A stretch of 64,000 nucleotides of DNA from Candidatus Woesearchaeota archaeon (GTDB lineage Archaea > Nanobdellota > Nanobdellia > UBA10117 > ARS21), in the NCBI GenBank assembly GCA_964344705.1, contig CAYFOG010000003.1, positions 16,715-80,714 on the forward strand, written 5' to 3'. Below, one piece after another: positions 15,772 to 63,487 of the stretch. The notes under the pieces are model-generated. The model ran no database searches, was not told the origin of the DNA, and worked only from the letters and a program-made list of their open reading frames with translations. The position numbers were made by a program, and so were the translations under genes. Each line of letters opens with the position of its first letter. Position 1 is the stretch's first letter.

Positions 15772-16797
15772 TTTTCCGTTCTTGGAGATTTTTTTCTGGA
15801 GTTCTTGATTGTTTAGCAATTCTGAAACTTTTTTGTATAAATCATTTGAATCTTTTGGTTTTGATAGTAGAATGTTTTTTCTATTTTTGAATAGTTCTTG
15901 TGTTTCTGGAAGTTTGGAAGTTATTGTAGGTATTCCCATCGCCATGCTTTCGATTACTGACAGCGGATTTGATTCTGTTGCATCTAAATTTGGATAAGGA
16001 AATACTGTTATGTGTGCTTCCGATAGATAATCAATTAGGTTCTTTTCGTCTAGAATAATTTTATAGTTTTTTTGATTTTCTAGTTGTTTATCTATTTTCT
16101 TCTTGTTCTCTTTGAACGCCTCTGAGTGTTTGCATAGAAACGTGAAGACTGTGTCGTCTTTGAATTTTGGAATTATATCTACAAGATATTTGTATCCTTT
16201 TCTGTCTGCAAGCGGACCGTAGAATAGAACTATTTTTTTGGTTTTTGACTTGGTTTTTGATTTTACATTGAACTTTTTCAAATCTATATGTGAATTGATG
16301 TATCGAATTTTGGATTTTGACGTTCCATATTTTGTTATGATTTTTTCAATTGATTTGCTTCCAAGCGTAACGTTGGATAATAGATTTAAAATTGGTGATG
16401 CGAAATATGTTCTTTTGTATTTTGTTTTTGATTTCAGAGTATGTATTCTTTTTACTTTTTGGAAAGGTTTTCCAATTATTGTTCTTATTGCAAGCAGTGG
16501 AGATGAACTGAATCCATGAATTACATCAAATTTTACATTTTCTACCAGTTCAACTTTTCTTATTCCAGTCAGAGTAAATAATAGTTTGTTAACTTTGTCA
16601 CCAAAGGGCATCTTTATTCTGTAAACTTTGACTCCATCTATTCTTTCTTTTTCAAGTAGCGGACGTCGATGGTCCGTAATTATTATTGCATTGTGCCCGC
16701 GGGAATTGAGTTCCTTTGCTAATTGGAGTGTTGATAAATTTGTGGCTTCTACTTTATTCTTATGAAATGCATTTATTACAAGAGCTATGTTTTTCAT
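15712..16797 (-). CDS. GT4-family glycosyltransferase
   Basis: C-terminal GT-B motif ...ESNPLSVIESMAMGIPTITS...; 361 aa. Confidence 0.7.
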   Translation of the reverse strand: MKNIALVINAFHKNKVEATNLSTLQLAKELNSRGHNAIIITDHRRPLLEKERIDGVKVYRIKMPFGDKVNKLLFTLTGIRKVELVENVKFDVIHGFSSSPLLAIRTIIGKPFQKVKRIHTLKSKTKYKRTYFASPILNLLSNVTLGSKSIEKIITKYGTSKSKIRYINSHIDLKKFNVKSKTKSKTKKIVLFYGPLADRKGYKYLVDIIPKFKDDTVFTFLCKHSEAFKENKKKIDKQLENQKNYKIILDEKNLIDYLSEAHITVFPYPNLDATESNPLSVIESMAMGIPTITSKLPETQELFKNRKNILLSKPKDSNDLYKKVSELLNNQELQKKISKNGKIRAKDFDIKLITDKYLKLY

Positions 16798-17483
16798 TTT
16801 GCTAATCGTTCTGCTTGTTTCCAGTCTTCGTCAGAATCAATATTTACTATTTCCCTATCAATTATGTAACTTGTACATCTGTCTCCGAACAGACTGTTCT
16901 TTTCCATTAATGTTTCTGGAGTCATAATGTAAATTTGTCCATTTTTCCAATAAGTTTGTTTTAAATCTTGACGTCTGGTTGATTTTTTATCATCATCTAT
17001 TGGTGTGTTATTTGATATGTTGAGAACTTGTCCTTCTTCAGTTAAGGTTTTTTGCCATATTGGATTGAAATGTTTTGGGGTTGGTGAGAGAGATATTAGT
17101 GAATCCCAATTTCCGTTCAAAACTGTTTCAATCGCCTCATCAATTTCTTCAGCTTTTTGGAATTGTGCGGTTGGTTGTAAGAGTACAATTAGCTTTATTT
17201 GGGAGTTTAGATTTTTAACAGTGTGTTGTAAAACTGGTAGTGTTGGAGTATTGTCTTGCGCAAGATCTTCAGGTCTATCTATTACTTCGGCACCATATCT
17301 TTGTGCGACTTCTTTAATTTCTGTGTCCTCAGTTGAAACAACTATTCGATTTATGTGTTTGGACTGCTTTGCTGCGTTGATTGTGTAAGAAATTAGTGGT
17401 TCTCCATTTAGCAATTTTATATTCTTGCGAGGAATTCCTTTTGAGCCTCCTCTTGCTGGAATTATTGCAATGACTCCTTCCAT
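16794..17483 (-). CDS. neuA: CMP-N-acylneuraminate (nonulosonate) cytidylyltransferase
   Basis: N-terminal IAIIPARGGSKGIPRKNIKLLNGEPLI signature of NeuA/KdsB-type cytidylyltransferases; 229 aa. Confidence 0.8.
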   Translation of the reverse strand: MEGVIAIIPARGGSKGIPRKNIKLLNGEPLISYTINAAKQSKHINRIVVSTEDTEIKEVAQRYGAEVIDRPEDLAQDNTPTLPVLQHTVKNLNSQIKLIVLLQPTAQFQKAEEIDEAIETVLNGNWDSLISLSPTPKHFNPIWQKTLTEEGQVLNISNNTPIDDDKKSTRRQDLKQTYWKNGQIYIMTPETLMEKNSLFGDRCTSYIIDREIVNIDSDEDWKQAERLAK

Positions 17484-18634
17484 TAATAGTTTAACCTCTT
17501 CTGAACATTAACTTCTGATTTTGCTAGTATGTCTGCTATTTGTTTTGCTGTGTTTGGTTTGAAATATAATTCGCTTTTTGGATAAGTTCCGTTTTTGACT
17601 TGTTTGAGTATTGCTTCTTTTATTTTTTCTGAATTGTGCGGGACAGTTATCACATTCTTGTCTTTTAATCGTCCTTGTTGTCGTGTCCCAATATTTACTG
17701 CTGGAGTTCCAAGGAATGAGCTTTCTTTGATTCCTGCGGAGGAATTTCCCACTATACATGATGCGTTTTTCATTAATTTTGCAAATAATTTCGGATCTAA
17801 AAAAATAAAAAAATGTACATGATTTTGTTCTGTGTGTTCTCGATAAATACGAATTGCTTTGCTTAATTCATCCGTTCCTGCATCGACATTTGGCCAGATC
17901 CAAATTGTTGGGATTTTTAACTCATCTATTGCTTTGATTGTTTCCTCGGCTTGCTTCTTGGCTTCTTTATGTTCTGTTGTAACGGGATGTTGCATTACAA
18001 TAATATATCCTTTTGACAGGTCTGGTTGTGCTCCAACTCCGCTTATTTCGCCTTCCCATAATTCCACCATATCTAAAGTTAAGTCTTGGTTGTTTAGAAA
18101 TTCTGCGTCTGGGCTTCCAACATTATAAACATCTTCAGGATATTCACCTAATTTTAGTATTCGTTCTTTTGAGATTTCGTTTGTTGAGAAGTGTATGTGC
18201 GCAAGCTTTGTTACTGCATGTCTGACTGATTCATCAATTGTTCCAGTTACATCTCCACCTTCTATGTGTGCAAGCGGTATGTTCAGGTATGCTGCTGCGA
18301 TTGATGGTGCTAAGATTTCATATCTGTCTCCGCGGATTAAAACTATATCAGGTTTTAGATTTTCAAATGCTGTTGAAAATTCTAGCAATCCCAGTCCTGT
18401 TGTTTTTGCCATTGCTGTGGGTGTTCCTCCTTCCAACAACATAGTTATTTTTTTGTTAATTTTGAATCCATCTTCTTCAATCTTAGTTATTATTTTACCA
18501 TATTTATCAATTAACGCTGAACCTGCAACAATTATTTGTAATTCTAATTCTGGATGCTCGTCTATTGCTTTCAAGATTAATTTTCCTCGTGCATAATGTG
18601 CCCTGTTTGTTATTACTACGCAGACTTTTTTCAT
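17483..18634 (-). CDS. neuC: UDP-N-acetylglucosamine 2-epimerase (hydrolysing), NeuC type
   Basis: 383 aa with an N-terminal VCVVITNRAHYARGK.. motif typical of NeuC/SiaA hydrolysing epimerases. Confidence 0.75.
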   Translation of the reverse strand: MKKVCVVITNRAHYARGKLILKAIDEHPELELQIIVAGSALIDKYGKIITKIEEDGFKINKKITMLLEGGTPTAMAKTTGLGLLEFSTAFENLKPDIVLIRGDRYEILAPSIAAAYLNIPLAHIEGGDVTGTIDESVRHAVTKLAHIHFSTNEISKERILKLGEYPEDVYNVGSPDAEFLNNQDLTLDMVELWEGEISGVGAQPDLSKGYIIVMQHPVTTEHKEAKKQAEETIKAIDELKIPTIWIWPNVDAGTDELSKAIRIYREHTEQNHVHFFIFLDPKLFAKLMKNASCIVGNSSAGIKESSFLGTPAVNIGTRQQGRLKDKNVITVPHNSEKIKEAILKQVKNGTYPKSELYFKPNTAKQIADILAKSEVNVQKRLNY

Positions 18635-19740
18635 TCTATTGCCTCCTGAGTAATTGGGTCAAATCGTTTCAAATCAATTTTTGTGGTTTTTCCAATTATA
18701 TTTGAGAATTCTTCAGAAGGTAATCCTCCGGCATATTGTTGCGGACGCATTGCATAAATCATTTCTTTTGTAATTGTAGTTCCGGCAGAAATATTTTGTC
18801 CGGCCATAAGTGACTTTCTGAATAATGGTCTGAAAACTGCTTCATCTTCATTAAGTGTTTTCTCAGTTTTTCCGAGACTTCTTTTTGTTGATTCAGAATT
18901 TAATATTTCTTGTTGTTTTTCTAAAGTTGATTCTAATTCTCTAATTCTAGAAACTAATTGCTTAAACTCTTCGGGAGTTTGTGAGACTTTATGATCTGCC
19001 CCATAGAAATCTCTTGATAAGGTGAAATGTTTTTCAATCACTTTGGATCCAAGTGCGACTGCAGCGACTGCTGCATCATTTTCGATTGAATGATCTGAAA
19101 ATCCAATTGGGATATCAAATTTTTCACTGTAAAATTTTATTGTGTTCAGATTTAGCTCTTCTGGAGGACAGGGATATTTGGATACGCAATGAAGTAGTAT
19201 TGGTGTTGTATTTTTTGATTTTAGAAAGTTGATTGCTTTTTCAGTTTCCTCGAGAGTTGACATTCCTGAGGAAAAAATTATTGGTTTTTTTGTTTCTGCC
19301 AAATAATCTAGAATTACAAAGTCAAGTATGTCTCCAGACCCTACTTTCCATACTTTGGGATTTAATTTGTTTAATCTCTTTGCTGCGCCCCGGCTCATTG
19401 GTGTTGACATGAACATTATTTTTTGTTCGTCGCAGAATTCTTTCAATGGTTTCCAAAATTCAAGAAAGGGTGTTGCGTGAGTGTTTCTAGAAACCCATGA
19501 ATATCTGTCTGATCCTTTTTTGGTGAAGTGTGGTGAAGTGAAATCAATGTTTAGTACTTCATCATGAACGTAATGAGTTTGGAATTTGACTGCATCTGCT
19601 CCGGCCTCTTTTGCTTTCAGAACAAGCTCTTTTGCATTGTCAAGATATTCTTCAACAGATCTGGATTCTTCAGTTTGAATAAAATTCTTTCCAATTTCGG
19701 CGATGATAAATGTGCGTGCTAGAAGTTTATCAAGTTCCAT
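18631..19740 (-). CDS. neuB: N-acetylneuraminate (nonulosonate) synthase, NeuB family with C-terminal SAF domain
   Basis: TIM-barrel motif GADAVKFQTHY plus a C-terminal SAF/antifreeze-like domain; 369 aa. Confidence 0.8.
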   Translation of the reverse strand: MELDKLLARTFIIAEIGKNFIQTEESRSVEEYLDNAKELVLKAKEAGADAVKFQTHYVHDEVLNIDFTSPHFTKKGSDRYSWVSRNTHATPFLEFWKPLKEFCDEQKIMFMSTPMSRGAAKRLNKLNPKVWKVGSGDILDFVILDYLAETKKPIIFSSGMSTLEETEKAINFLKSKNTTPILLHCVSKYPCPPEELNLNTIKFYSEKFDIPIGFSDHSIENDAAVAAVALGSKVIEKHFTLSRDFYGADHKVSQTPEEFKQLVSRIRELESTLEKQQEILNSESTKRSLGKTEKTLNEDEAVFRPLFRKSLMAGQNISAGTTITKEMIYAMRPQQYAGGLPSEEFSNIIGKTTKIDLKRFDPITQEAIE

Positions 19741-19787: not shown

Positions 19788-21173
19788 TTAGAGTCTTTTG
19801 AATTCTTTCTCAAACCCGTCTACTAGAAGTTTGGTGTTGTTTTGATCCTTCATGAATTTCTTATATTTTCCCACATAAAACGCCTGTCCGGGATGTGTTG
19901 CTTCAATAACTGCGTTTATGTATTTGTATTGCTGTTTAGTCGTTAGTTTCTTTTTGAGTGTTCTCGTTATTGCGTTTGGAAGTTCATAGAAATCTCTGAC
20001 TCTTTCAAAATAATCAAATATATCATAATATGCTCGCCCCAGAACGATTGTGGGTTTTTTGTGTAGTAATGCTTCCCATCCCGTATTTGAATTAATTGTT
20101 ATTACTCCTTTTGAATTCTTTAGAATGTCGTGAGTGTTGGTTTTTGTATTAATTAGTCTAACATTGTATAGTTTTTTTATTTTTCTTAATTCGGATATCT
20201 TGAATTCTCCTTCTCCATTTGGATGTTGTTTTACATATAATTTGTATTTTATTGGTAGATGTTTTGAAATTGATTCAATTAATTGAAATTGATTATAATA
20301 TTGTGGTGCTCGTAGAAGTATTTGTGCATCTCCGCTTCGATGTAATGGAAAATATAAATATTTTTCATTGAAATTTGGTGGTTCAGTCATATGTTTTGCA
20401 ATGGGTTTTCTTAATGGTCTGATGCTCTGTTCTTTTGCAATATGCCATAAATTTGCATAAGGATTCCTGAATTTTTCATATCGTGCATTGCTGTATATGC
20501 TTCTCACAAATGACGCTAGCTCGATTATTCCCGGTACTCTGAAAACATTGTATGTTAATTTCTTTTCTTTTTTTGTGGGAGTTAGATAGTTCTTAACTCG
20601 TTTTATTTGTTTTGTAGTCAATTTTTTGTTTTTGTTTTTCTTCCAGTATTTTGTTAACTCGTCCCATCGTCCGGCGGGATCTTTGACAGTTACAAATGTG
20701 TTTGGAATTGGATTAACTTTGTAAATCATTTGTATTGCTCTGAACCTTGGTGCAACACATCTCGGTACCAAATTTACAAATCTTTCTTGACCTCCGAGAA
20801 TTACGTCTGGTTTGTGTTTCTTCAAATATTCTTCCCAGAACTTGAAATGTTTTACCAAATCTTGGAATGCGTGTTTGCGTTTTTTTGAAGAGTAATTCTT
20901 GTCTGCAGTTAGAAGTAGGTTCATGTTTGTATTGTATTTGTCTTCATATTTTTCAAGCTCTTTTTGTAAATTATTGATTTTGTAGGTTTCAAACTTGTCA
21001 AGAATATTTTCAACGGTTTTCCCTCGTTGCTTTAGAAAATTTTCTGCCTTTTTTGAATAAGTGACGTTCTGGACCGTGTAACCTCTTGCTTCAAACTCTT
21101 CAGTTAGAACTAATTCTCGCTTTGCGAAAGTTAAGGAGTTTGATATGAATATGATTTTTTTTACTTTTTTCAT
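19788..21173 (-). CDS. KpsS/KpsC-like (Capsule_synth family) putative keto-sugar transferase
   Basis: 461 aa. The segment YLYFPLHRSGDAQIL resembles the conserved PLQ..DSQ core of KpsS/KpsC beta-Kdo transferases. The gene sits directly upstream of neuB-neuC-neuA. Confidence 0.4.
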   Translation of the reverse strand: MKKVKKIIFISNSLTFAKRELVLTEEFEARGYTVQNVTYSKKAENFLKQRGKTVENILDKFETYKINNLQKELEKYEDKYNTNMNLLLTADKNYSSKKRKHAFQDLVKHFKFWEEYLKKHKPDVILGGQERFVNLVPRCVAPRFRAIQMIYKVNPIPNTFVTVKDPAGRWDELTKYWKKNKNKKLTTKQIKRVKNYLTPTKKEKKLTYNVFRVPGIIELASFVRSIYSNARYEKFRNPYANLWHIAKEQSIRPLRKPIAKHMTEPPNFNEKYLYFPLHRSGDAQILLRAPQYYNQFQLIESISKHLPIKYKLYVKQHPNGEGEFKISELRKIKKLYNVRLINTKTNTHDILKNSKGVITINSNTGWEALLHKKPTIVLGRAYYDIFDYFERVRDFYELPNAITRTLKKKLTTKQQYKYINAVIEATHPGQAFYVGKYKKFMKDQNNTKLLVDGFEKEFKRL

Positions 21174-21212
21174 GGCGAATTTTGTTAATTGGAGTTATAA
21201 ATATTATGAAAT

Positions 21213-22484
21213 TTAATACTTCAGTCTGCTGAAATGTTTTTTCAATATTTTGTTGTTTATTGATGCCAGATTTTTGTTTAAGGTTTGAGATTTCAATATC
21301 TGCGCATTTGGCAGTTTTTTCAATTGTTTGTATCTGTTTTGTTGATCTTCCAAGTTTTGTTTGATAATTGTTTTTCTTCGTTTCTTGAGTTTTGTGATGT
21401 TGGTATCTATAATGAATGTTTGGTCTGGCTTTGGAAATAATCTCAAGAGCAATTTCATTATTATTGATTTCTCTGCGTAAGGATATTGCCCGTAAACATG
21501 GTAAAAATATCTGTCACAAATTACTAATTCTCTGTTTCGTAGTTTTGGATATATTTTTGTTAGATATGTTGTTAGATATTCAACAAATAAGTATGTGAAA
21601 AATAATTCGTATTTTAAACTGAATTTTGGTGTCTTTTCAACTGTTGCAGTTTTGTATAAAGCTTTCTTTGGTATTTTTTGTAATAGTTTTGTTAAAGGTA
21701 AGATTGGATTCCATCCAAAATAGAAATAATTTGCTTTGAGTTTTAATTTGTCAAACAATTTGTTGTATGTTTTTACTGACTCTTTGGAGAGTGTTGATTT
21801 TCCAGAACCGTTTGGTCCAATCAAAGCGATTAGTGCGCCTTTTCTTTTCGATGAACTCCGTTTTGTGAAGAATTGTATTAATTGCTTTGTAAGAAGCATT
21901 TGAGTCTTTATATTTAAGATTGGTTTTATTGGTAGTGTTAGTTTTTTTTCATTGATTAGTTTGTAAAAATTTCTTTTCCAGCCATATTTTTCTAATTGTG
22001 AGTTTATGTACTCATAGTCTAAGTTTTTGTTTTTGAAAATCTTTTTTTCGGTTGGAGTTATTTTTCTATTTTCAAATAATATGTGTGCAGCATGAATCAA
22101 AACTTGGTCCTCTTTGCTTGGAATTTTCACTAGTGGATTTAATTGCTTGGCTCTTTGAGTGACTTTTTCTTGGTTCAAGGCTTTTATTCCGAGCCATGCA
22201 ATTCTACGATGCAAATGTAAAATAATTATGAAATTTTTCTCAAATTTTACCATCATTGTTTTGAAAGGTTCATTCTTTTCAGTCAGATAAATTTGATATT
22301 TATTTTTTTGAAGAACTTTCATTGCTTGTTTGTAGTCTTTGTTATTTTGGAATAAAATATCAAGTCCTCCGATTGGAGTGTTATGTTTTTCAGTCTGTTT
22401 GAAAAGATTGTAATCTATTTTTGATTTATTGAAAAGCGTGAGTGGAAGTTTGTATATTTCGGGAATTTTGTATTCTACAAGCAT
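21213..22484 (-). CDS. two-domain protein: N-terminal LicD/nucleotidyltransferase-like domain plus C-terminal P-loop kinase
   Basis: N-terminal G(G)LDILF plus an HLH motif; Walker A LIALIGPNGSGKSTL at about residue 215. Paralogous in architecture to the 25339-26604 protein. Confidence 0.45.
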   Translation of the reverse strand: MLVEYKIPEIYKLPLTLFNKSKIDYNLFKQTEKHNTPIGGLDILFQNNKDYKQAMKVLQKNKYQIYLTEKNEPFKTMMVKFEKNFIIILHLHRRIAWLGIKALNQEKVTQRAKQLNPLVKIPSKEDQVLIHAAHILFENRKITPTEKKIFKNKNLDYEYINSQLEKYGWKRNFYKLINEKKLTLPIKPILNIKTQMLLTKQLIQFFTKRSSSKRKGALIALIGPNGSGKSTLSKESVKTYNKLFDKLKLKANYFYFGWNPILPLTKLLQKIPKKALYKTATVEKTPKFSLKYELFFTYLFVEYLTTYLTKIYPKLRNRELVICDRYFYHVYGQYPYAEKSIIMKLLLRLFPKPDQTFIIDTNITKLKKRRKTIIKQNLEDQQNRYKQLKKLPNAQILKSQTLNKNLASINNKILKKHFSRLKY

Positions 22485-22535
22485 TTCTGGTTTCTTCCAA
22501 TATGTTTTATAAATTGTGTTAAATTGTGTTCTATT

Positions 22536-24260
22536 TTATTTGTAGATTGTTGCTAACGTTTGTACTTTTCGTCCAAGCAGTAGGTTAAATATTGTTTTGA
22601 ATGGTTTATTCTTTCTTAATAAGAATTGGTAATCTTGTACTTCTACTTTTTTACCGGAACAATATTCTAATAGTCCTTTCCAATGTTCTTTAGTTAATAA
22701 TCTTTCATTTCCAAAATCTTTTTCAGGATAATTGTTGTTTGGAATGCTTATTATTACTGCTTTTCTTGAAACTCTTAATTGTTCGTCCAAAAGTTTCTTT
22801 ATTTCGCTATTACTAAAGTGTTCAAAGAATCCTTGAGAGATAGTTACGTCAAATTCGTTTTTCTTGAAAGGTAACTTGAATGCATCTGCGTACTTTAATT
22901 TGAGTTTGCCGTTGAATTCCTTGTTATTTTCTGAAACAGATCTTAATATTTCTTTGTCATTATCTATTGACGTTACTTTGTGCCCTAAATGAGATAACAA
23001 TATTCCCATTACGCCCGTTCCTGAACCTACTTCCAATATCTTTTTTGGTTTTTGTGAAATTATCTTATCAAATAATTCGGCGTGGTAATAGTTTCCAAGA
23101 AACTCCTTTAATGTTATTTTTTCTTTATAGTAGTCTCCCCAGGTTTTTTCTTTCTTTTTTGTTAAATCTTGGTAGATATTTAGCGTTTTTCTTGCAGTTT
23201 CTTTCCAACTAAACTTCTTGGATTGTTTTAATCCCGACTTAATGAGTTTATTTCTTAGTCGTTTGTCTGTTATTAGTGATTCCATTGCTTTTTGAATTTG
23301 TTTTGTATTGTTTGGATTTATTAGGATTGCGGCATCTTCTACTACTTCGAGTAGACTTGAATTATTTGAAGTTATTACGGGACATTTACAGCTCATTGCT
23401 TCCAGAGGAGGGAGCCCAAAACCTTCATATAAAGAAGGATAAACAAACATCTTTGCATTTGAATATATTTCTGGAAGTTCGCTTGTTTTTACATTTTCCA
23501 AAAAAGTTATTTTTTTTCCTAAGTTCTCAGTCTTTACTAATTCAAATATTTGTTCATATTTCCAACCTTTTCTTCCGACTATCAATAATTGTTCATTCGG
23601 ATTTTTTGCTACCACTTTTGAGAATGCTTTTATCAAATTAGTTATATTTTTTCTAGGTTCCAATGTTCCCACGAACAGGATATAATCTTTGTTCAGTTTA
23701 TACTTCTTCAAGGTTTGATTTGATTTGGTTGGTTTGAAAATTTTGTTTGTTGCGAGCAAAGTTACATCTATTTTTTCATTAACTATTCCTAATTGTTTAT
23801 GTACGTCTTTTTTTGTTGATTCACTTATTGTAATTATCTTTTCGTTTCTTCTCGAGATTATTGGTAACGCAAATTTGTGATGAATTGTTGAAAATTTTGG
23901 TTGTGTTTCTGGAACTACTAACGGTACTAAGTCACAAATTGTTGTTATCTTCTTGTATTTTGAAGGTAGTAAGAATGGACCTATTTGTGCTGTTTCATGA
24001 ACAATAGTTAAATTGTGGTTTCTCAACCTGAACGGAATCTCGATTAATTTTCTGAATTCTCTTGCAAAAGGTATTTTTCTAATAGGTATAATTATTTCAT
24101 TTTTGTTTTTGTAAAGAAGGTCCTTGTTTAATTTGTTGTGAATTAAATAATATTCATTATTCTTATCTAATTTGTGTAGCTCCTCGACCAAATTTCTCAC
24201 ATAGGTCGCTATTCCTGCAGCACCATCGTCGATTGCGTCAGTTATTATTCCGATTTTCAT
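22536..24260 (-). CDS. GT4 glycosyltransferase fused to a C-terminal class I SAM-dependent methyltransferase
   Basis: GT-B C-terminal motif EGFGLPPLEAMSCKCPVITS in the first 360 aa, then ILEVGSGTGVMGILLSHLGHKVTSIDND (MTase motif I); 574 aa. Confidence 0.7.
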   Translation of the reverse strand: MKIGIITDAIDDGAAGIATYVRNLVEELHKLDKNNEYYLIHNKLNKDLLYKNKNEIIIPIRKIPFAREFRKLIEIPFRLRNHNLTIVHETAQIGPFLLPSKYKKITTICDLVPLVVPETQPKFSTIHHKFALPIISRRNEKIITISESTKKDVHKQLGIVNEKIDVTLLATNKIFKPTKSNQTLKKYKLNKDYILFVGTLEPRKNITNLIKAFSKVVAKNPNEQLLIVGRKGWKYEQIFELVKTENLGKKITFLENVKTSELPEIYSNAKMFVYPSLYEGFGLPPLEAMSCKCPVITSNNSSLLEVVEDAAILINPNNTKQIQKAMESLITDKRLRNKLIKSGLKQSKKFSWKETARKTLNIYQDLTKKKEKTWGDYYKEKITLKEFLGNYYHAELFDKIISQKPKKILEVGSGTGVMGILLSHLGHKVTSIDNDKEILRSVSENNKEFNGKLKLKYADAFKLPFKKNEFDVTISQGFFEHFSNSEIKKLLDEQLRVSRKAVIISIPNNNYPEKDFGNERLLTKEHWKGLLEYCSGKKVEVQDYQFLLRKNKPFKTIFNLLLGRKVQTLATIYK

Positions 24261-24284
24261 ATTTTATCAATTAATTAAGGATTG

Positions 24285-25241
<957 letters not shown>

Positions 25242-25338
25242 CTATTGGAGTTGTATGTGAATTTAAAAGTTTAATTAAACTAAGTTCAATAAACAATGTC
25301 TTTGCTAAACCTTAAAAGATTTGTTTTGATGGCTAAAC

Positions 25339-26604
25339 ATGAGTTCACGTAAGAATGCTCTTAGAATTCTTAGGAAATTTGGCCAGAGCAAAGTTAATTA
25401 TGCGATTATGCGTAATTGGGAATTTTTGACTAAAGATGTTCGTCTTGGAAAAGATATTGACATTGTTATTGATTCAAAGAGCGTAGGTAAAGCTGGAAAA
25501 ATTTTGCTCAAAGAAGGTTTTGTTCGTGAGAAAATATCTCCCTACTCTCATCACTTTGGATATGCTAAATATTTTTCAAAGGAATTGAAGTTGGTTAAGT
25601 TTCATTTCCATGTTGGAGGAATAAGTGGCCGTCATGTGACTTATTTGTCTGCTGAGCAAATATTGCGTCGTCGAGAAAGGATTGGGAAATATTATGTTTT
25701 GTCTCCTGAAGATTTGTATATTTCGTTGGTTTTACATTCTCCTGGAAGCAAAAGATATTCTAAAGTTGTAAACAAGTTGAAAAAGCTTGACAAAGAATAT
25801 TTGAGAGTTAATTTGATTGATATTTTTGGAACTTCGCTTGGAACAAAAGTTTTTGAAAGTAAGTTTTCAGATTTAAGGAACTTAAAGACACAAATCCGCG
25901 GTAAAGTGTCTTTGGGTGATCCAATTGGCGCGATTTATATCCTTGGAATGTCTGTAATTTGGTATATTCCAAAACTTATTCGTGGTTCTCCAGTTGTAAG
26001 CTTTATTGGGATGGATGGTTCTGGAAAAACTACTGCAACTTCTAAGATGATTGAGCTCTTGAAGGAGCATCGGATAAAAAGTGAGTTGGTTTATGTGGGT
26101 CGAGGTAGAGGAAATATTCTTCCGATTCAATTTTTTGGTAGAAAGTACAAACGTAGAGAGAAACAGATTGATTCTAAGTCAAAAAAGAATAAGGATATTA
26201 AATTTTCAAGAAAAGTTTTGTACTCTTTGGCTGCGCCGGTGTTTTACTTGGACTTTTTGTTAAGATATTTCAGAGTTTTTGTTGCTCGACGAACTAAGAA
26301 AGTTGTAATCACAGATAGATTTGCAACGGACTTCTTGATTATGAAGAATGTTCCGTTGTGGTTGAGAAATTTATTGTATATTTTGTCTCCGAAACCCAAC
26401 GCAGTTATTTATTTGTATAATTCTCCAAGGCTCTTGTATAAACGAAAACCGGGTCACCCGGCAGGTGATTTAGAGCGTCAAGAAAAATTATATGCTTCGG
26501 TTCTTAGAAAAGTGAAAAAAGTTCACAGAGTTAAAAGTTTGAATGAGTGTCAAACAATCCAAGATGTTTCAGAAATTATTTTTGGTGAGATAATTTCAAA
26601 TTAA
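25339..26604 (+). CDS. two-domain protein: N-terminal LicD/nucleotidyltransferase-like domain plus C-terminal thymidylate-kinase-like P-loop kinase
   Basis: N-terminal RLGKDIDIVID (GxDxD NTase-like) plus an FHFHVGG motif; Walker A SFIGMDGSGKTT (Tmk-type GxDGxGKTT). Confidence 0.45.
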   Translation: MSSRKNALRILRKFGQSKVNYAIMRNWEFLTKDVRLGKDIDIVIDSKSVGKAGKILLKEGFVREKISPYSHHFGYAKYFSKELKLVKFHFHVGGISGRHVTYLSAEQILRRRERIGKYYVLSPEDLYISLVLHSPGSKRYSKVVNKLKKLDKEYLRVNLIDIFGTSLGTKVFESKFSDLRNLKTQIRGKVSLGDPIGAIYILGMSVIWYIPKLIRGSPVVSFIGMDGSGKTTATSKMIELLKEHRIKSELVYVGRGRGNILPIQFFGRKYKRREKQIDSKSKKNKDIKFSRKVLYSLAAPVFYLDFLLRYFRVFVARRTKKVVITDRFATDFLIMKNVPLWLRNLLYILSPKPNAVIYLYNSPRLLYKRKPGHPAGDLERQEKLYASVLRKVKKVHRVKSLNECQTIQDVSEIIFGEIISN

Positions 26605-27610
26605 AGCTTTTGTAGAGTTTCAAATAATTTTCATTCATCTGCTTTTCATCGTACAGTTTTTTTACTCGCGCTCTTGCAGATTTTCCAAGGCGTTTCTGAA
26701 GTTTTGGATTTGATTTTAGCTTCTTAACTGCTGAGGTAATTTGCTTTGGTGAGTAAGTATCAACACATATTGCTGTATTTCCTACAATCTCCTTTATGTG
26801 TGGAAGGTTTGTTGTTATTATTGGTTTTCCACAAGACATTGTTTCAATTAAAGTGAGTGGAATTCCAATTGAAGAAACGTCTGATCGGAAAGGTAACACG
26901 ATTATGTCTGATTTATTGTAATCTTTGACTATGTTTTTGCTTGGTCCGTAAACTTTGATTCTTTCGTTGTGTTTCTTTGCGTAGCTTTCCGTTTTTTCTG
27001 AATACTGTGTTAGGTGTAAATTTAGATTTAGCTCTTTATCATCTAACAATTTGAAGGCTTTTACTGCGTCTGGAAAACCTTTGAGTGGTGTGTTATGTCC
27101 AAAATACGCTAAAGTTAATTTTTTGTTCTTTGATGTTTTAGTTGGTTTGAATTTGTTTGTGTCTATTCCTAACCGAATTAGTTTTGTGTTTGGAAGATTT
27201 AGTTTGTTTTTGAGATATTTTGTTGGAACTACAATTGTGTTCATCTTGCTTATTGCTCGGGTTTTGAAAGTGAGAGGTATGAAATTAGTTATTGTTGCAG
27301 GAATCATTCTTAATAAATATGTAATTTTTGATTTTTCATAGAATTTTAAGTATTCAAGTATATATCTTAAATATTCCAGAGGATTGCTTGCTAGATTTGA
27401 GTGTAATGAATATATTGCTTTATCTGAAATGTTCTTGTTTGTTAGTGCTGGAAGAAATCCTGAAGTATGTATATGATATAAATCTGCAGAATTTCCGTTG
27501 TGAGTTATTTTGTACTTCTTTTTCTGCATATAGTTTTTGATTTCTGATTGAATTTGTACTAATCCTTCTGCTTTGAAATCTTTGAAATCTCCAATAAACG
27601 ATACTTTCAT
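26576..27610 (-). CDS. GT4-family glycosyltransferase
   Basis: ...GIPLTLIETMSCGKPIITT... GT-B C-terminal motif; last gene of the heptose operon, with a 4-nt overlap to the upstream GT9. Confidence 0.65.
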   Translation of the reverse strand: MKVSFIGDFKDFKAEGLVQIQSEIKNYMQKKKYKITHNGNSADLYHIHTSGFLPALTNKNISDKAIYSLHSNLASNPLEYLRYILEYLKFYEKSKITYLLRMIPATITNFIPLTFKTRAISKMNTIVVPTKYLKNKLNLPNTKLIRLGIDTNKFKPTKTSKNKKLTLAYFGHNTPLKGFPDAVKAFKLLDDKELNLNLHLTQYSEKTESYAKKHNERIKVYGPSKNIVKDYNKSDIIVLPFRSDVSSIGIPLTLIETMSCGKPIITTNLPHIKEIVGNTAICVDTYSPKQITSAVKKLKSNPKLQKRLGKSARARVKKLYDEKQMNENYLKLYKSFNLKLSHQK

Positions 27611-28602
27611 CTCAATTCCCTCAAAACATCAGCTAATTTTATTTTATTCAGCTCTTTTCCGTTTCCAAAATATTTTCCCCTGTTGTTGTAACTTGGTGCT
27701 TTTTGCTTCCAGATTACTTTGCTTCCTTTGTTTAACGGCCCGAGTCGCTTTGGATCAGTTGGTCCAAACAGCGCGATTACATTGTTGTTGACTGCTGATG
27801 CCATGTGCATTGGTCCAGAATCATTACAAATTATTTTGTTACACTTGGCCATTAATGCTACGCTTTGGTGAAGTGTTGTTGTTCCTATTACTGAGTTTAC
27901 TGTTTTGGATTTTAGTATTTCTTCTTCTTTGTCTTTGTCCGTTGGTCCACCGAGCAAAAGTATTGGTTGCTTAATCTTTTTCACAAGCTCAACATACTTT
28001 TTGATATTCCAGATTTTTGCGTTTAGTGTTTGGCCGGGGTTGTCGCCTCCGCCAGGACATATTCCAATCGTGTTCTTTGTTAGTTTATGAGTTCTAAAGA
28101 ATTTGTTTGCAAAGTTTTTGTCTTCTTTTGTGAGGATTAAATCTAGTTTTGTATCATAATAGTTTGGTTCAAAGTTTAGTGCATTGAGTTGGTTTAGATA
28201 ATAATAGATATCGTGCCGTCTTCGGCCATAATGTATTTTGTGTGTTAATCCGTACCCTTCTTTTCCGTTTCTGTCAAATCCAATTCGCGTTGGAATGTTA
28301 AACAGCCGTGCAGTTAGGTTGAATATCCAATGCCGGTCAAGAACGAAGATTATGTCGTAGTTATCTTCTCGGATTCCCGCGATTAGGTTAATTAGTTTGA
28401 GTGGTTTCTTCTTGAAGAACATTGCTTCATCAAATTTTATTATGTTGTTGATGTTTGGGTTGTTTAGAAGTGCTTGTGAAGCAGACTTTCCGACTAGATA
28501 ATCTATTCTTGCTTTGGGGTGCGTTTGTCGAAGTTGTCTGACTAAGGGTGTGGTCATTAACGTATCTCCAATTGCTCCTATCTTAAACAATAATATTTTC
28601 AT
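27607..28602 (-). CDS. GT9 ADP-heptose:acceptor heptosyltransferase (WaaC/WaaF-like)
   Basis: N-terminal ILLFKIGAIGDTLMTTPLVRQLRQ..P.A.IDYLV is the GT9 heptosyltransferase signature; 331 aa. Confidence 0.75.
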   Translation of the reverse strand: MKILLFKIGAIGDTLMTTPLVRQLRQTHPKARIDYLVGKSASQALLNNPNINNIIKFDEAMFFKKKPLKLINLIAGIREDNYDIIFVLDRHWIFNLTARLFNIPTRIGFDRNGKEGYGLTHKIHYGRRRHDIYYYLNQLNALNFEPNYYDTKLDLILTKEDKNFANKFFRTHKLTKNTIGICPGGGDNPGQTLNAKIWNIKKYVELVKKIKQPILLLGGPTDKDKEEEILKSKTVNSVIGTTTLHQSVALMAKCNKIICNDSGPMHMASAVNNNVIALFGPTDPKRLGPLNKGSKVIWKQKAPSYNNRGKYFGNGKELNKIKLADVLRELR

Positions 28603-29512
28603 TTGCTTTTATCCATTCAATATATTCTTTTATTCCGCTTTCCAAATTGTATTTGGATTTGTAGTTTGGCAAAAAGTTGTTTGTGTCTGCTTGTGTGAAC
28701 TCTTGGTAGAATTTGTATGGGTTGTCAATGTATTCTGGTTCGAGGTTTGTGCCTAAGTTTTTGTTTAATTCTTCAACGATTTTATTGAAATCTTCGGGGG
28801 TTCCAGTTGCTACGTTGTATATTCCGGACGGTGCGTTCATTGCGATTATGTTTGACTCAACTATGTCTTTGATATAAACAAAATCTCGTTTCTGTTGTCC
28901 GTGTTTGAATATTTTTGGTTTATTTCCCTCTTTCATCTGCAAGTATAGTTGCCAAATCATTGATGACATCTTTGTTTCCATTTTGTAAGTCTCTCTCGGT
29001 CCGTAGACATTGAAGTATCTTAGTCCAACAATGTGAGTGTTTGGATTTTCCTTTAGAGTTTGTCTTGCTATATTGTCGCAAGATAGTTTTGAGTATCCGT
29101 ATATGTTTGCAGGAAATTCGCCTTTCCCAACTGTGTTTGGTGGTACTGTTAATCCGTATGTTGCTCCAGAAGAGGCATAGATAAGTTTGATATTATTTTT
29201 CACACAGTGATTGATTAGTCGCTTTGTTACATTTGTGTTGATTTCCATCACAAGCTTTTGGTCGGTTTCTGTTGTGACAACTTGTGCGCCTTGGTGGAAG
29301 ATTGTTGTTGGTTTATCCAACGCGTTCCAATCAAATTCTCGCAAGTCGGAAGTTATTACTTCACCATTGAAACCGTACAAGTTCTTGAAGTGTCCTGTGC
29401 TGAAGTCATCAATAACAGTTATCTTTGCTTTAGGATATATTTCTTGCAGCTCTAATGCTAAGTTGGAACCTATAAACCCCGCACCTCCCGTTACTACAAA
29501 GTGTTCAACCAT
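28583..29512 (-). CDS. hldD: ADP-L-glycero-D-manno-heptose 6-epimerase (HldD/RfaD-like SDR)
   Basis: [18 protein letters not shown]...VIDDFSTG plus a YGYSK catalytic motif; embedded between hldE and GT9. Confidence 0.7.
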   Translation of the reverse strand: MVEHFVVTGGAGFIGSNLALELQEIYPKAKITVIDDFSTGHFKNLYGFNGEVITSDLREFDWNALDKPTTIFHQGAQVVTTETDQKLVMEINTNVTKRLINHCVKNNIKLIYASSGATYGLTVPPNTVGKGEFPANIYGYSKLSCDNIARQTLKENPNTHIVGLRYFNVYGPRETYKMETKMSSMIWQLYLQMKEGNKPKIFKHGQQKRDFVYIKDIVESNIIAMNAPSGIYNVATGTPEDFNKIVEELNKNLGTNLEPEYIDNPYKFYQEFTQADTNNFLPNYKSKYNLESGIKEYIEWIKANENIIV

Positions 29513-30926
29513 TTTGACTTTTCCTTATTCTTTCAATTGTGTTTGTAGATGATTTTCCTTCCACTAATTTGATTATTTTTACTTCTCCACCGTGCTTTTG
29601 GACTGTTTCTGTTTCTGGCAAATCTTTGGCGTTGTAGTCTCCTCCTTTTACATGAACGTCTGGTTGGAGTTGGTTGAGCAGTTCTTCAGGAGTGTCTTCA
29701 TCAAATAGAACAACATAATCTACTGTAGTTAAGTTTGCTGCAAGTTCTGCTCTTTCGGTTTCGCTGTTGATTGGTCGTTTTGGACCTTTGTATCTCTTAG
29801 TTGAAGCATCTGTGTTGATTGCTAATATTAGAATGTCGCCGAAAGCTTTGGCTGTGTTAAGCAATTGTGTGTGTCCGACATGAAGTAAATCATATATTCC
29901 GTTTGTTGTGACTATTTTCTTTCCTTCGGCTTTTAGTTTTTGGACAATTTGTGATAGTTCTTCTTGAGTTTTTATCTTTGAATGCTTTCCATTGAATGAT
30001 GATTTTAATTCTTCTGAAGTGAGCGTTGCTGTTCCGAACTTTCCTACAACTACGCCCGCTGCCTGGTTAGCAATCTGTGTTGCTTCGTATAATTCTGCTT
30101 TTGAGGCTAGCGCAAGTGTTAATGCCGCTATGAATGTGTCTCCCGCTCCAGAAACATCGTAAACTTCGCGGGCTTTCGTTGGTAGATGATTGTATTCTTT
30201 TGTATATTTGTTGTATGAGGAAGTTCCATTTGGTCCTTGTGTGATTATTACATGAGTATTGTGTTTTTCTGCAATTAATTGGGATAATTCTTCCGGGGAG
30301 GTGTTTGTGTTTGTTATTTCTTTTGCTTCTTTTATGTTGGGCGCAATTGTAAACACATCTTTGAATAAATTCATATTGATTGGTTTTGGGTCCACAACAA
30401 TCACTATGTCGAGTTTCTTTAACTCTTCGGTTAGTTCTTTTGTTAGCGTTCCTTTGTTGTAATCTGATAATAGGATCATGTCAAACTGATTTGATTTGAT
30501 GAACTTGATTATTTGTTGGACATGTTCTGATTGAATTGGTTTTGGATCTTCAAAATCCACTCTCAATGCTTGTTGGTTTTGTGCAACTAGGCGGGTTTTC
30601 TTTATTGTTGTGAAGTTATTTCTTTCAATTAGAAAGGTATTGATGTTTGCTTGCTTGAACAGTTCTAGCATCGGCTCTTTGAACTTGTCGTTTCCAACCT
30701 GTCCAATTACTGTGCACTTTGCTCCGAGTGCTACCACGTTGTTTGCAGTGTTTGCTGCGCCACCAAGTCTGTGTTCTCGGTTGTTGTTTGAAACGTTGAG
30801 AACTGGTACTGGTGCTTCTGGATTGATTCGGTTTATGTCTCCGAATAAGTATTCGTCAAGAATTAAATCTCCGATTACAAGTATGTGCTTCTTTGGAAAT
30901 TCCTGAATGGTCTTAATCAGTTTCAT
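29505..30926 (-). CDS. hldE: bifunctional D-beta-D-heptose 7-phosphate kinase / D-beta-D-heptose 1-phosphate adenylyltransferase
   Basis: N-terminal pfkB ribokinase-like domain (GGAANTANN, DVSGAGDTF) plus a C-terminal cytidylyltransferase-like domain (NGIYDLLHVGHTQLL); 473 aa. Confidence 0.85.
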   Translation of the reverse strand: MKLIKTIQEFPKKHILVIGDLILDEYLFGDINRINPEAPVPVLNVSNNNREHRLGGAANTANNVVALGAKCTVIGQVGNDKFKEPMLELFKQANINTFLIERNNFTTIKKTRLVAQNQQALRVDFEDPKPIQSEHVQQIIKFIKSNQFDMILLSDYNKGTLTKELTEELKKLDIVIVVDPKPINMNLFKDVFTIAPNIKEAKEITNTNTSPEELSQLIAEKHNTHVIITQGPNGTSSYNKYTKEYNHLPTKAREVYDVSGAGDTFIAALTLALASKAELYEATQIANQAAGVVVGKFGTATLTSEELKSSFNGKHSKIKTQEELSQIVQKLKAEGKKIVTTNGIYDLLHVGHTQLLNTAKAFGDILILAINTDASTKRYKGPKRPINSETERAELAANLTTVDYVVLFDEDTPEELLNQLQPDVHVKGGDYNAKDLPETETVQKHGGEVKIIKLVEGKSSTNTIERIRKSQNG

Positions 30927-31503
30927 TTACTTTGTAGATTATATGGTCAACTAGTTCACACCAAGTATGGATTATGTTTATGTGTGACTCTTGGATTCTT
31001 GCAGTTGTGTGAGAAGGTATAATTATATTTGAATCTAAAGTTAGTTCGTTAATTGTTCCGCCAGTTTTTCCGTTAAGGCATATTGTTTTCATACCTTTTT
31101 CCTTTGCAGTTTCAAAGGCATTATGAATATTCTTTGAGTTTCCCGAGGTTGTGATTCCGACTAGAACGTCTCCCGGTCTTCCCAAGCCTTCAACTTGTCG
31201 TGAAAATACAAACTCATAACCATAATCGTTTGATGCAGCGGTTACTGCTGACGCATCTGAGGACAGTGCAATCGCTGGAACACTTGGTCGCTCTTTGTTG
31301 TATCGAATAATTAATTCTGCTGCGAAGTGTTGTGCGTCTGCTGCTGAACCGCCGTTTCCGCAAGTTAGTATTTTATTTCCGTTTCTTACTGATTCAAGGA
31401 TTATTTCTCCCGCTCCAACTATTTGATTTAGGTATTTGTCATCCAATAGTTTCTTTTTCGTTTCAATTGACTCTTCTAAGAAGTCTCTAGCTATTTCTTT
31501 CAT
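30913..31503 (-). CDS. gmhA: phosphoheptose (sedoheptulose-7-phosphate) isomerase, SIS domain
   Basis: CGNGGSAADAQHFAAEL...GITTSGNSKNI is the canonical GmhA motif set; 196 aa. Confidence 0.85.
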   Translation of the reverse strand: MKEIARDFLEESIETKKKLLDDKYLNQIVGAGEIILESVRNGNKILTCGNGGSAADAQHFAAELIIRYNKERPSVPAIALSSDASAVTAASNDYGYEFVFSRQVEGLGRPGDVLVGITTSGNSKNIHNAFETAKEKGMKTICLNGKTGGTINELTLDSNIIIPSHTTARIQESHINIIHTWCELVDHIIYKVNETD

Positions 31504-32612
31504 CTTTTCTTTCTTCTTTTTTGTTTGTATATTAACTTTTCAGCGTTTCGGAATACATCATTGACTGTGATTTTATCCATCCAATTTTGTGAGGGAAGCT
31601 TGAAGCTTCCCAAATGCGGGTTAATAACTGGGGCTTCTTTTGATTTGTAAAGTGAGAGGTTGTTTTTACCATATGGTGCGTATCGGACTGGAGTATTGGG
31701 TCCAAACAGTCCAATTGTATCTGTTCCTTGCGCTGCCGAGATGTGTAGAGGTCCCGTATCGTTTGAAATGTAGATGTTACATCGTTCTGTGAGTCCGAAT
31801 AATTGTTTCAATGAGAATTTTCCTGCAAGATTGTAAACTGATTCCCGGTAATTCATTTGTTCTATTATGTTTTCAATGTATTTGTGATGGTTTAATGTAT
31901 CGGGAATTAGAATTATTGCATTATGCTCTTCAATTAGCTTGTCCGCAAGTTTTGCGAAGTTGTTTGCTGACCATCTACGCCACTTTGCTGTTCCAGCACT
32001 CGTGACAGTCATTCCAACTATTGGTCTGCGCTTTGGAAGTCTTTTGAAGAAGTTGTCTACTCTTTTTTTGTCTGAATTCGAGTATTTTAGTAGACTTAGT
32101 TTGTCTGGTTTATTGGGTTTTATGTTTAGAGGTTTGAGTAAATTCAAGAAAGTGTTGACTGCGTGAATTTTATCATTATAATGAACTAATTGATCGTAAA
32201 GTTTTGCTCTCAGACCGTGTGAAAAACCAATTACTGTTTCCGAAAGATGGTTTGTTAGAAGAGCAGATAGTTTTAGATATGGTTCTAAGTCAAAGGCCAA
32301 GTCATATTTCTTATATTGCTTTGTGAGTGTTAGTAAATTGTGTGGTTCAAATAGTTCTATATCGTCGATGAATGGTTGATTATTATATACTGCTTTGTTT
32401 TGATTTCTGCATAGAACAGTTATTCTTGTGTTCGGATAGTTTTGTTTGAATTGTTGGATTAATGGCAAAGTTAGAACTGATTCTCCAATTGCCCAGAGTT
32501 TTACAAATAGCACTTCTTCTGGAACTGCTTTCTTTTGTCGCTTCAAAAGTGAGAGTGTATTTACTAGTGGAGTTCCTACGATTTTGTCTATCTTTCGTTG
32601 TAAACTAAGCAT
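31500..32612 (-). CDS. GT9 heptosyltransferase (second copy)
   Basis: GT9-like fold (ESVLTLPLIQQFK...TVLCR) with a C-terminal GPNTPVRYAPY motif; 370 aa. Confidence 0.65.
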   Translation of the reverse strand: MLSLQRKIDKIVGTPLVNTLSLLKRQKKAVPEEVLFVKLWAIGESVLTLPLIQQFKQNYPNTRITVLCRNQNKAVYNNQPFIDDIELFEPHNLLTLTKQYKKYDLAFDLEPYLKLSALLTNHLSETVIGFSHGLRAKLYDQLVHYNDKIHAVNTFLNLLKPLNIKPNKPDKLSLLKYSNSDKKRVDNFFKRLPKRRPIVGMTVTSAGTAKWRRWSANNFAKLADKLIEEHNAIILIPDTLNHHKYIENIIEQMNYRESVYNLAGKFSLKQLFGLTERCNIYISNDTGPLHISAAQGTDTIGLFGPNTPVRYAPYGKNNLSLYKSKEAPVINPHLGSFKLPSQNWMDKITVNDVFRNAEKLIYKQKRRKKR

Positions 32613-63413: not shown

Positions 63414-63487
63414 AGCGCGGAGAGGGATTTGAACCCCCGAATGACGGGACTGCAACCCGTCGCCTTACCGGACTTGGCCACCCGCGC
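63414..63487 (-). tRNA. tRNA-Cys (anticodon GCA)
   Basis: The reverse complement folds as a cloverleaf: acceptor GCGCGGG/TCCGCGC, D-arm GCC-AAGTCCGGTAA-GGC, anticodon stem ACGGG/CCCGT with loop TTGCAGT (GCA), T-arm GGGGG-TTCAAAT-CCCTC, and discriminator U (Cys identity). CCA is not encoded and an oligo-T follows. Confidence 0.8.

Follow-up and report, generated by a model that had tools for sequence, protein, structure and literature searches.

We analysed a window of 64,000 nucleotides of DNA from a Candidatus Woesearchaeota archaeon (contig CAYFOG010000003.1, positions 16,715 to 80,714), which encodes two related two-domain proteins that we call paralogues A and B. Paralogue A (positions 21213-22484 of the window, minus strand, 423 amino acids, aa) consists of a degenerate nucleotidyltransferase (NTase) domain resembling NTP_transf_5, followed by a P-loop kinase domain resembling thymidylate kinases (TMPK). 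Paralogue B (25339-26604, plus strand, 421 aa) has an NTP_transf_5 NTase domain and a TMPK-like kinase domain in the same order. We tentatively propose that A and B act as accessory tailoring enzymes of a Wzx-dependent pathway for surface glycans or N-glycans, in which they would combine a phosphodiester-forming step with an ATP-dependent phosphorylation.

Both open reading frames (ORFs) have the coordinates and strands given in a preliminary description of this DNA, and all the motifs quoted there were found exactly as claimed. BLASTP aligned A and B from end to end (A 18-399 with B 14-400, 23% identity, E=1e-8). We used a non-circular test of paralogy in which each protein was scored against a hidden Markov model (HMM) built solely from sequences of the other clade. 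A scored 130.9 bits with the B-clade model, over residues 10-418, and B scored 151.6 bits with the A-clade model. Taken separately, the N-terminal halves scored 46-57 bits and the C-terminal halves 93-99 bits, against a maximum of 6 bits in the control (30 shuffles per half). The similarity between A and B therefore reaches far past the Walker A motif, in line with the paralogy that had been proposed, and the two align as diverged full-length paralogues across both domains. Both have many homologues (48 clusters for B, 1245 representatives for A), and are therefore real genes.

The kinase domain of A (aa 205-423, 21216-21872, minus strand) is supported by invariant alignment columns and the alignment to the S. 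tokodaii TMPK 2plr (E=3e-4), and that of B (aa 216-421, 25984-26601, plus strand) by Foldseek and the comparison of the family profile with the PDB. The Walker A motif reads GPNGSGKST in A (aa 223-231; GPNGSGKS at 21795-21818) and GMDGSGKTT in B (aa 224-232; GMDGSGKT at 26008-26031). The other kinase motifs are D324-R325-Y326 (21507-21515) and the LID arginine R369 in A, and D326-R327-F328 (26314-26322) and R369 in B. The Pfam profile Thymidylate_kin (PF02223) matched A with 27.5 bits and B with 23.9 bits, around its gathering threshold of 27. The full-length AlphaFold model of B, made from 28 homologues, had a mean predicted local distance difference test (pLDDT) of 90.5 and a predicted template-modelling (pTM) score of 0.85, and its 50 best Foldseek matches were all thymidylate kinases (target TM-score 0.55-0.70). 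The family profile matched solved TMPKs of the PDB with E=3e-10 to 1e-8 via the P-loop, the DR[YF] strand and the LID. Hence, the earlier description of the P-loop domain as thymidylate-kinase-like holds in all three comparisons (Pfam, Foldseek and the profile against the PDB), and the C-terminal domain belongs to the TMPK fold and superfamily with its P-loop, DR[YF] motif and LID arginine.

TMPK fold and motifs would also be expected if A and B were housekeeping kinases of dTMP or of another nucleoside monophosphate (NMP) that merely happen to lie in a glycan island. The JGI label "thymidylate kinase" agrees with this, DPANN genomes are reduced, and we found no other TMPK-like ORF within the 64-kb window. 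Yet A and B score 30.0 and 21.2 bits with the dTMP-kinase equivalog TIGR00041, far short of its cut-off of 83.25 bits (nine out of ten stand-alone relatives of the kinase domain, of ca. 200 aa, score 32-54 bits and the remaining one has no match). Moreover, the gene is present twice, each time with an NTase domain attached, and relatives are translationally coupled to flippase or GT4 genes in distant phyla, including bacteria with a normal tmk. The nucleotide-binding segment is also remodelled. We regard this explanation as highly improbable, and by their profile scores A and B are classed outside the housekeeping dTMP kinases.

The remodelling affects the segment of strands 2-3, which binds dTMP in TMPK, and which is swapped for conserved, family-specific blocks, GRGxNILPIQ in the B clade or YFGWxPxLP in the A clade. 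Only part of this segment aligns with TMPK (YtGrG with YFPNRETG of the P. falciparum enzyme). Next come two long helices and an insert rich in Lys and Arg, whose length varies and which corresponds in B to aa 252-292; the lowest pLDDT of the B model is found at aa 250-290. The hydrophobic linker helix of B (aa 195-215) was modelled with high confidence as a packed inter-domain helix. We rejected the idea that it is a transmembrane anchor, because of this packing and because the helix is not hydrophobic in A and in many homologues.

The NTase-fold domain of B (aa 1-196, 25339-25926, plus strand) is supported by a model of this domain alone (pLDDT 92.6), Foldseek and conserved columns, and that of A (aa 1-197, 21894-22484, minus strand) by clade alignments and a motif census. 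B carries the motif KDIDIVID (aa 38-45), with D39-I-D41 at 25453-25461, and the HxH motif FHFHVGG (aa 88-94), with H89-F-H91 at 25603-25611. The corresponding motifs of A are GGLDILF (aa 39-45), where G40-L41-D42 (22359-22367) has lost the first Asp of the DxD, and LHLHRR (aa 89-94), with H90-L-H92. The Pfam profile NTP_transf_5 (PF14907, gathering threshold 31.2 bits) matched B above threshold (35.5 bits) and A below it (19.4 bits). The matches start around position 91 of the profile (91-191 for B, 95-240 for A) and leave its first ca. 90 positions unmatched. Relatives of the A clade carry PF14907, and A itself, though sub-threshold, is homologous to B across the NTase domain, as indicated by the cross-clade scores of the N-terminal halves. 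The matches of the B domain model in the PDB include MenT1 (8an5_B, E=3.6e-4), ANT(2'')-Ia, JHP933, LnuA (4fo1, target TM-score 0.61) and TM1012, with CCA enzymes further among the top 50. LnuA was the best match of the sequence profile in the PDB; this match is weak, but it is aligned across the DxD motif. The N-terminal domain is thus a Pol-beta-superfamily NTase of the NTP_transf_5 family with a helical C-terminal subdomain. The MenT/AbiEii-like fold suggested a role in defence or in toxin-antitoxin systems, which we rejected on two grounds: among the PADLOC defence models B had no match and A had only short ones, mostly centred on the P-loop, and the context was glycan biosynthesis at every locus examined.

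The preliminary description had likened the N-terminal domain to the LicD/fukutin type. The NTase superfamily, which includes LicD, stands; the LicD/fukutin assignment does not. LicD (PF04991) matched neither A nor B in the Pfam scan at E≤1, FKRP, LicD and fukutin are absent from the 50 best Foldseek matches of the B domain in the PDB, and none of the three was retrieved in the sequence-profile search of the PDB at E≤10. We therefore rejected membership of this family, there being neither profile matches nor structural neighbours. The associated functional model, a LicD/fukutin-family transferase of phospho-substituents fed by a P-loop kinase acting on a small alcohol, sugar or polyol, accounts for some of the data: LicD shares the Pol-beta NTase fold with NTP_transf_5, the DxD motif is present in B, and genes related to phospho-substituents are found in several contexts. 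But beyond the failed assignment, this model lacks the cytidylyltransferase step between kinase and transferase. Furthermore, TMPK-like enzymes act on phosphates, and the role of alcohol kinase is apparently taken by separate APH domains where these are present. We consider this model very unlikely. The general idea of a decoration by a phospho-substituent or phosphodiester remains plausible for A and B, and the gene context lends it some support.

We studied the conservation of the active sites in 207 two-domain members aligned to the family HMM (positions in B numbering). In the kinase domain, the Walker A glycines 224, 227 and 229 are conserved in 99.5-100% of the members, the Walker A lysine K230 and the pair D326-R327 in 100%, and the LID arginine R369 in 98%. 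In the NTase domain, the second Asp (D41) is conserved in 98% of the members, and the two other positions vary: the first (D39) is Asp in 53%, Asn in 30% and Gly in 12%, and at the third carboxylate position (89), where Asp is canonical, 72% have His and 24% Asp. Around 50 members, which are the deeper relatives, have the canonical DxD..D triad; the DxD..HxH state is found in 57, corresponding to the B clade, and the [N/G]xD..HxH state in around 87, corresponding to the A clade (A itself is GxD). On the A side, 23 close relatives showed GxD..HxH in the motif census, and the count for NxD..HxH was 61. With these three states the HxH motif, previously taken for a shared signature, is better described as a derived feature common to both paralogues of the window, and not as a signature of the family. 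On this alignment it is the kinase half that stays constant across the family, whereas the NTase carboxylates vary. S122-x-E124 and H133, located where the helical subdomain begins, are kept in both clades, which suggests that the acceptor-binding side of the NTase domain has been retained.

Eroded carboxylates in most members next to an invariant P-loop might indicate a non-catalytic protein, i.e., an ATP-binding or ATP-hydrolysing regulator or scaffold of the Wzx flippase and GT4 machinery in which the NTase fold serves as a ligand-binding module. Translational coupling of the gene to a flippase in archaea and bacteria is compatible with such a role. However, the DR[YF] motif and the LID arginine, which serve specifically in transferring a phosphoryl group to an acceptor, are kept in 98-100% of the members, D41, S122, E124 and H133 of the NTase domain are still conserved, and the catalytic GT4 and APH domains fused to some members suggest that the role is metabolic. 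This makes a purely regulatory function improbable in our view.

The nature of the kinase acceptor can be tentatively narrowed down. We found no conserved acidic residue after strand 2, the candidate base for a hydroxyl, in the family alignments, and the arginines that contact the acceptor phosphate in TMPK are kept. These two observations point to a phosphomonoester, possibly an NMP, and the acceptor is probably phosphate-bearing rather than a free alcohol. The phosphorylation of a free small alcohol, sugar or polyol, as initially suggested, becomes less likely given the DR[YF] motif and the lack of a candidate base; where a kinase of the alcohol type is present, it is a separate APH domain or gene.

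An exhaustive HMMER search with A retrieved 1245 cluster representatives at E≤1e-3, of which 132 at E≤1e-10. They are mostly two-domain proteins of 420-470 aa, along with single-domain and longer forms. The homologues of B, all under the labels Nanoarchaeia, DHVE6 or Woesearchaeota, were retrieved from marine metagenomes; this places the window in a marine DPANN (Nanoarchaeia-like) archaeon, with which its gene content agrees. Other relatives were found in metagenome-assembled genomes of Methanosarcinales, in Micromonospora, in Pseudomonas and in other taxa. More distant proteins of ca. 500 aa, from bacterial Wzx/Wzy loci, can still be aligned across both domains, and the motifs recur in them (hhalign probability 98%, E=7e-14). 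In databases the family is named "thymidylate kinase" (JGI) or "nucleotidyltransferase family protein" (NCBI), with no fuller functional name.

We scanned contigs using the P-loop peptide as a seed and obtained at least 11 loci. In two related loci, L004 and L020, A and B are encoded in tandem (A followed by B) on one strand, beside genes for Capsule_synth, GT4 and S-adenosylmethionine (SAM)-dependent methyltransferase proteins. The B of L004 is 46-48% identical to that of the window, and the identities for L020 are 42-47%. In both loci the GT4 and the methyltransferase are separate genes beside the pair, whereas they are fused in the window. Given these tandems, the inverted bracketing of the intervening genes by A and B, first seen as a design, is better regarded as a local rearrangement in the window, and the predicted ancestral arrangement is a tandem A-B operon.

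A Wzx-type flippase is encoded directly upstream of the fusion gene in L006, L008, L022, L023 and the locus of homologue P0036, often with overlapping stop and start codons; in L009 and L010 there is an upstream ORF of ca. 495 aa that is flippase-like by its size alone. In the window, L004, L008, L017, L018, L020 and L021 the fusion gene has a GT4 partner, which is either translationally coupled on the upstream side or convergent on the downstream side. The convergent downstream genes overlap the fusion gene by 9-32 nt in L004, L008, L010, L018 and L021, the partner being a GT4 in all but L010, whose overlapping ORF is a candidate GT4 by its similar size. This recurring overlap suggests a conserved gene pair. 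The A-clade genes of L017-L019 are operonic and followed by a long NeuC-like epimerase gene near NeuB and NeuA genes. Some members of the family are themselves fused to a GT4 (P0163, P0168) or to domains of the APH/choline-kinase type (P0145, P0169, P0198), and in Micromonospora a separate APH gene directly follows the fusion gene.

Genes related to CMP- or CDP-linked donors or to phospho-substituents recur in these neighbourhoods. NeuA and Capsule_synth are found in the window, L004, L019 and L020, and CDP-OH_P_transf is found in L017 and L018, in the former together with a stand-alone cytidylate kinase. Membrane transferases of the Sulfatase fold, which we count in the same group, are encoded in L005, L006, L015 and L021. 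Cytidylyltransferases and a phosphoenolpyruvate (PEP)-mutase phosphonate cluster lie near the fusion in L006 and in the P0036 locus, where the homologue stands between the flippase and a cluster of cytidylyltransferase, Ppm, Ppd and alcohol dehydrogenase (ADH) genes (PEP-mutase/decarboxylase/ADH). In L017 (5523-9026), a related glycan cluster from an archaeon, the genes of a sulfotransferase, the CDP-alcohol phosphotransferase and the cytidylate kinase are just upstream of a GT4 and the A-type fusion, a gene order that hints at CMP recycling encoded within such glycan clusters.

The kinase half is also found alone. In L015 (5037-11189, Pseudomonas sp. MPB23), a stand-alone TMPK-like gene of 251 aa lies between an ABC exporter and a membrane transferase of the Sulfatase fold with 618 aa, and a class I/II aminotransferase is encoded upstream of it. 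This locus may be a lipid- or envelope-modification operon that includes the kinase half alone. We searched for split NTase genes beside such kinase-type genes and rejected the two candidates, the ORFs of 248 aa in L015 and 206 aa in L006, which have no similarity to the NTase domain.

The combination of an NTase with a P-loop kinase is a recurrent design for the synthesis of activated donors. As in PAPS synthase, CoA synthase, Cj1416/Cj1415 of C. jejuni or HldE, both domains of A and B could build an activated, nucleotide-linked donor, possibly further phosphorylated, which would then be used by the nearby GT4, Capsule_synth or Sulfatase-fold transferases. The family offers several parallels: small-molecule kinases of the APH/choline-kinase type are fused or adjacent, phosphonate and cytidylyltransferase genes adjoin some members, and separate candidate transferases are always nearby. 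Still, neither domain of A or B comes from the families used in those systems, and we found no match to ATP-sulfurylase, APS-kinase, DPCK or CTP_transf_like among the Pfam and NCBIfam profiles. Pol-beta NTases normally target hydroxyls, not phosphates, the catalytic Asp of 3'-OH kinases is missing in A and B, and the degenerate NTase site of A fits poorly with an obligatory synthetic step. On balance, we consider a donor-making role unlikely.

We favour the tailoring of a lipid-linked glycan, although we hold this reading as possible rather than probable. The reaction would take place at the cytoplasmic face, before flipping. The NTase-fold domain of B, with its metal site of DxD and HxH, would use a nucleotide-activated donor, which might be CMP- or CDP-linked or an NTP, to create a phosphodiester on the lipid-linked glycan. 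The fused kinase domain would carry out the ATP-dependent phosphorylation of the phosphomonoester partner of this step. Its simplest acceptor would be the released NMP (e.g., CMP phosphorylated to CDP), which would relieve product inhibition; alternatively, it might phosphorylate the precursor of a phospho- or phosphono-substituent. A has a complete kinase site and has lost one more carboxylate of the NTase site, and would probably be a kinase-active, NTase-impaired partner of B.

Several points weigh against this proposal. The three carboxylates expected of a competent Pol-beta NTase are found in neither protein (D39/D41/H89 in B, G40/D42/H90 in A): the third is a His in both, and A additionally lacks the first Asp. 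Nucleotidyl or phospho transfer by these NTase domains is therefore not assured. The replacement of the NMP-binding segment of TMPK by the GRGxNILPIQ block and the basic insert means that the acceptor is possibly not a nucleotide, and the separate cytidylate kinase of L017 makes it hard to see the fused domain as a plain CMP kinase. No gene related to a CMP- or CDP-linked donor was found in the flanks read of L005, L008, L021, L022 and L023. The neighbourhoods come from a small sample of around 15 loci with no statistical control, and glycan loci commonly contain such genes. Finally, a heteromer of A and B is a conjecture. A variant of the scheme starts from the precedent of phosphomevalonate kinase, which has the NMP-kinase fold. 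The kinase domain would turn a phosphomonoester or phosphonate (X-P) into X-PP, which the NTase domain would use in the manner of a polymerase to place X-phosphate on the lipid-linked glycan before export by Wzx, with A and B forming a heteromer of an active and a pseudo-active subunit. We consider this variant improbable.

The minus strand of the window has an operon of eight genes with A in third place; their order is gmd, GT4-methyltransferase, A, Capsule_synth, neuB, neuC, neuA and GT4, with intergenic gaps of -4 to 51 nt. The genes between A and B are those initially described, as confirmed by Pfam: the fusion of a GT4 and a SAM-dependent methyltransferase upstream of A (22536-24260, minus strand; Glycos_transf_1 144 bits, Methyltransf_25 56 bits) and the GDP-mannose 4,6-dehydratase gmd (24285-25241, minus strand; PF16363 460.5 bits). 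The latter is divergent from B, with a spacer of 97 nt. B is the sole plus-strand gene between two minus-strand operons, and its 3' end overlaps by 29 nt (26576-26604) that of a convergent GT4 glycosyltransferase gene (26576-27610, minus strand). Directly downstream of A, a KpsS/KpsC-like Capsule_synth (19788-21173, minus strand; PF05159 61.5 bits) is a conserved neighbour of the pair, also in L004 and L020. Its relationship to KpsS is distant (32 bits for a cut-off of 600). The protein, encoded next to neuABC, may be the ulosonic-acid transferase. The genes neuA (CMP-nonulosonic acid (NulO) synthetase), neuC (hydrolysing 2-epimerase) and neuB (NulO synthase) follow in the same operon (16794-19740, minus strand; Pfam CTP_transf_3, Epimerase_2 and NeuB).

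Other genes of the region, identified with Pfam, include a Wzx-type flippase (Polysacc_synt/MOP, 14165-15646, plus strand) and an STT3/AglB oligosaccharyltransferase of 834 aa (6091-8595, plus strand), and the window also encodes GT2 genes. By its predicted gene content, the region from 6 to 33 kb is a protein-glycosylation and surface-glycan island. This context agrees with the earlier view of a glycan-modification module of unknown chemistry. Phosphonate genes were not found in the window. The STT3/AglB gene is followed on the plus strand, up to 10391, by a gene for a protein of 599 aa with a weak match to DUF6541 (24 bits, below the Pfam threshold).

The minus strand also encodes a complete ADP-L-glycero-D-manno-heptose pathway (27607-33132), with a GmhB-like HAD protein (32605-33132), GmhA/SIS (30913-31503), the bifunctional HldE (29505-30926), an HldD-like epimerase (28583-29512) and two GT9 heptosyltransferases (31500-32612 and 27607-28602). 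These genes, of the type of the bacterial lipopolysaccharide core, are here found in a DPANN archaeon and are syntenic in L004. The G+C content is 0.30 at 20000-24000, which includes A and the GT4-methyltransferase gene, and around 0.35 elsewhere in the window, as is typical of variable glycan islands. Outside the island we found the gene of a Cas4-family nuclease (35892-36620, minus strand), followed at once by an ORF of 1131 aa (36613-40008), and one tRNA gene (63414-63487, minus strand), the sole Rfam match in the window.

Both superfamilies combined in the fusion are well known, yet for this large family there is neither a characterised member nor an assigned chemistry. Its genes occupy a conserved position beside those of Wzx flippases and GT4s, and the polysaccharide and N-glycan loci concerned span DPANN archaea, relatives of methanogens and several lineages of bacteria. 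Once the reaction is solved, Wzx-dependent glycan assembly would probably gain a new step of tailoring or of nucleotide handling, and the labels "thymidylate kinase" and "nucleotidyltransferase family protein" would be corrected. The answer could also explain the pairs of "thymidylate kinase" and PF14907 genes in phosphonate clusters. For the biology of DPANN, the locus contributes to the view of an elaborate surface glycan (a sialic-acid-like sugar, heptose, methylation) despite a minimal genome.

Among known systems, the kinase domain has the same fold as thymidylate kinase (PF02223; ST1543 of S. tokodaii, 2plr/4nzy; human TMPK, 1e2d) and has in common with it the P-loop G-x-D-G-x-G-K-[ST]-T, the DR[YF] strand and the LID arginine. 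It differs by the remodelled strand 2-3 segment, the fusion to an NTase, the glycan operons and the scores below the equivalog cut-off. The N-terminal domain shares an NTase core and a helical subdomain with ANT(2'')-Ia, LnuA, MenT1, JHP933 and TM1012, to which the matches are weak (E=4e-4 to 3e-2, 11-20% identity). In contrast to these NTases, A and B have a His for the third carboxylate, A misses the first Asp, and there is no resistance or toxin-antitoxin context. NTP_transf_5 (PF14907), of which many members of the family carry a precomputed match, is described as an "uncharacterised nucleotidyltransferase". LicA/LicC/LicD and fukutin/FKRP resemble the family in their NTase-fold superfamily, the DxD and the logic of phosphodiester decoration, and LicA-like APH/choline-kinase domains are fused or adjacent in some members; unlike LicA/LicC/LicD, A and B have no LicC-type step and their kinase is TMPK-like, not choline-kinase-like. 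The resemblance to PAPS synthase, CoA synthase and Cj1416/Cj1415 is one of logic only.

We found no characterised member of the fusion family, nor an assigned reaction, in the literature or databases; PF14907 turned up in a single paper. The architecture is already visible in databases and has been mentioned in passing, its chemistry being unassigned: in the PEP-mutase family "GCF 540", Ppm is flanked by a "thymidylate kinase" and a PF14907 nucleotidyltransferase, an association called unusual and for which no function was proposed (PMC8942020). The pairing of the two domains in A and B also recalls PsmK and PsmN of the lasso peptide pseudomycoidin, a kinase and an ANT(2'')-like NTase that attach a substituent via a phosphate. 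PsmN, an "uncharacterized NTP transferase" modelled as similar to ANT(2''), is needed together with the kinase to put hexoses on the phosphate, and a double mutant in its DxD motif has no activity (PMC6993621). By analogy, the kinase domain of A and B might phosphorylate a hydroxyl on the glycan, or else on a protein or lipid acceptor, and to this phosphate the NTase domain would attach a sugar or another group. ANT(2'')-Ia is indeed among the best structural matches of the N-terminal domain of B, and the kinase and NTase-fold domains are always paired in the family. Yet PsmK is of the HPr-kinase type rather than TMPK-like, its substrate with PsmN is a peptide, and the two are separate proteins. 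PsmN is no more than a putative member of PF14907, its activity was never reconstituted in vitro (PMC11912497), and the kinase of A and B has the DR[YF] motif with no conserved base for a hydroxyl acceptor. Such a two-step phospho-glycosylation is thus unlikely for A and B. In the light of these comparisons, the fusion is a variation on the NTase fold and the NMP-kinase fold rather than a categorically new system.

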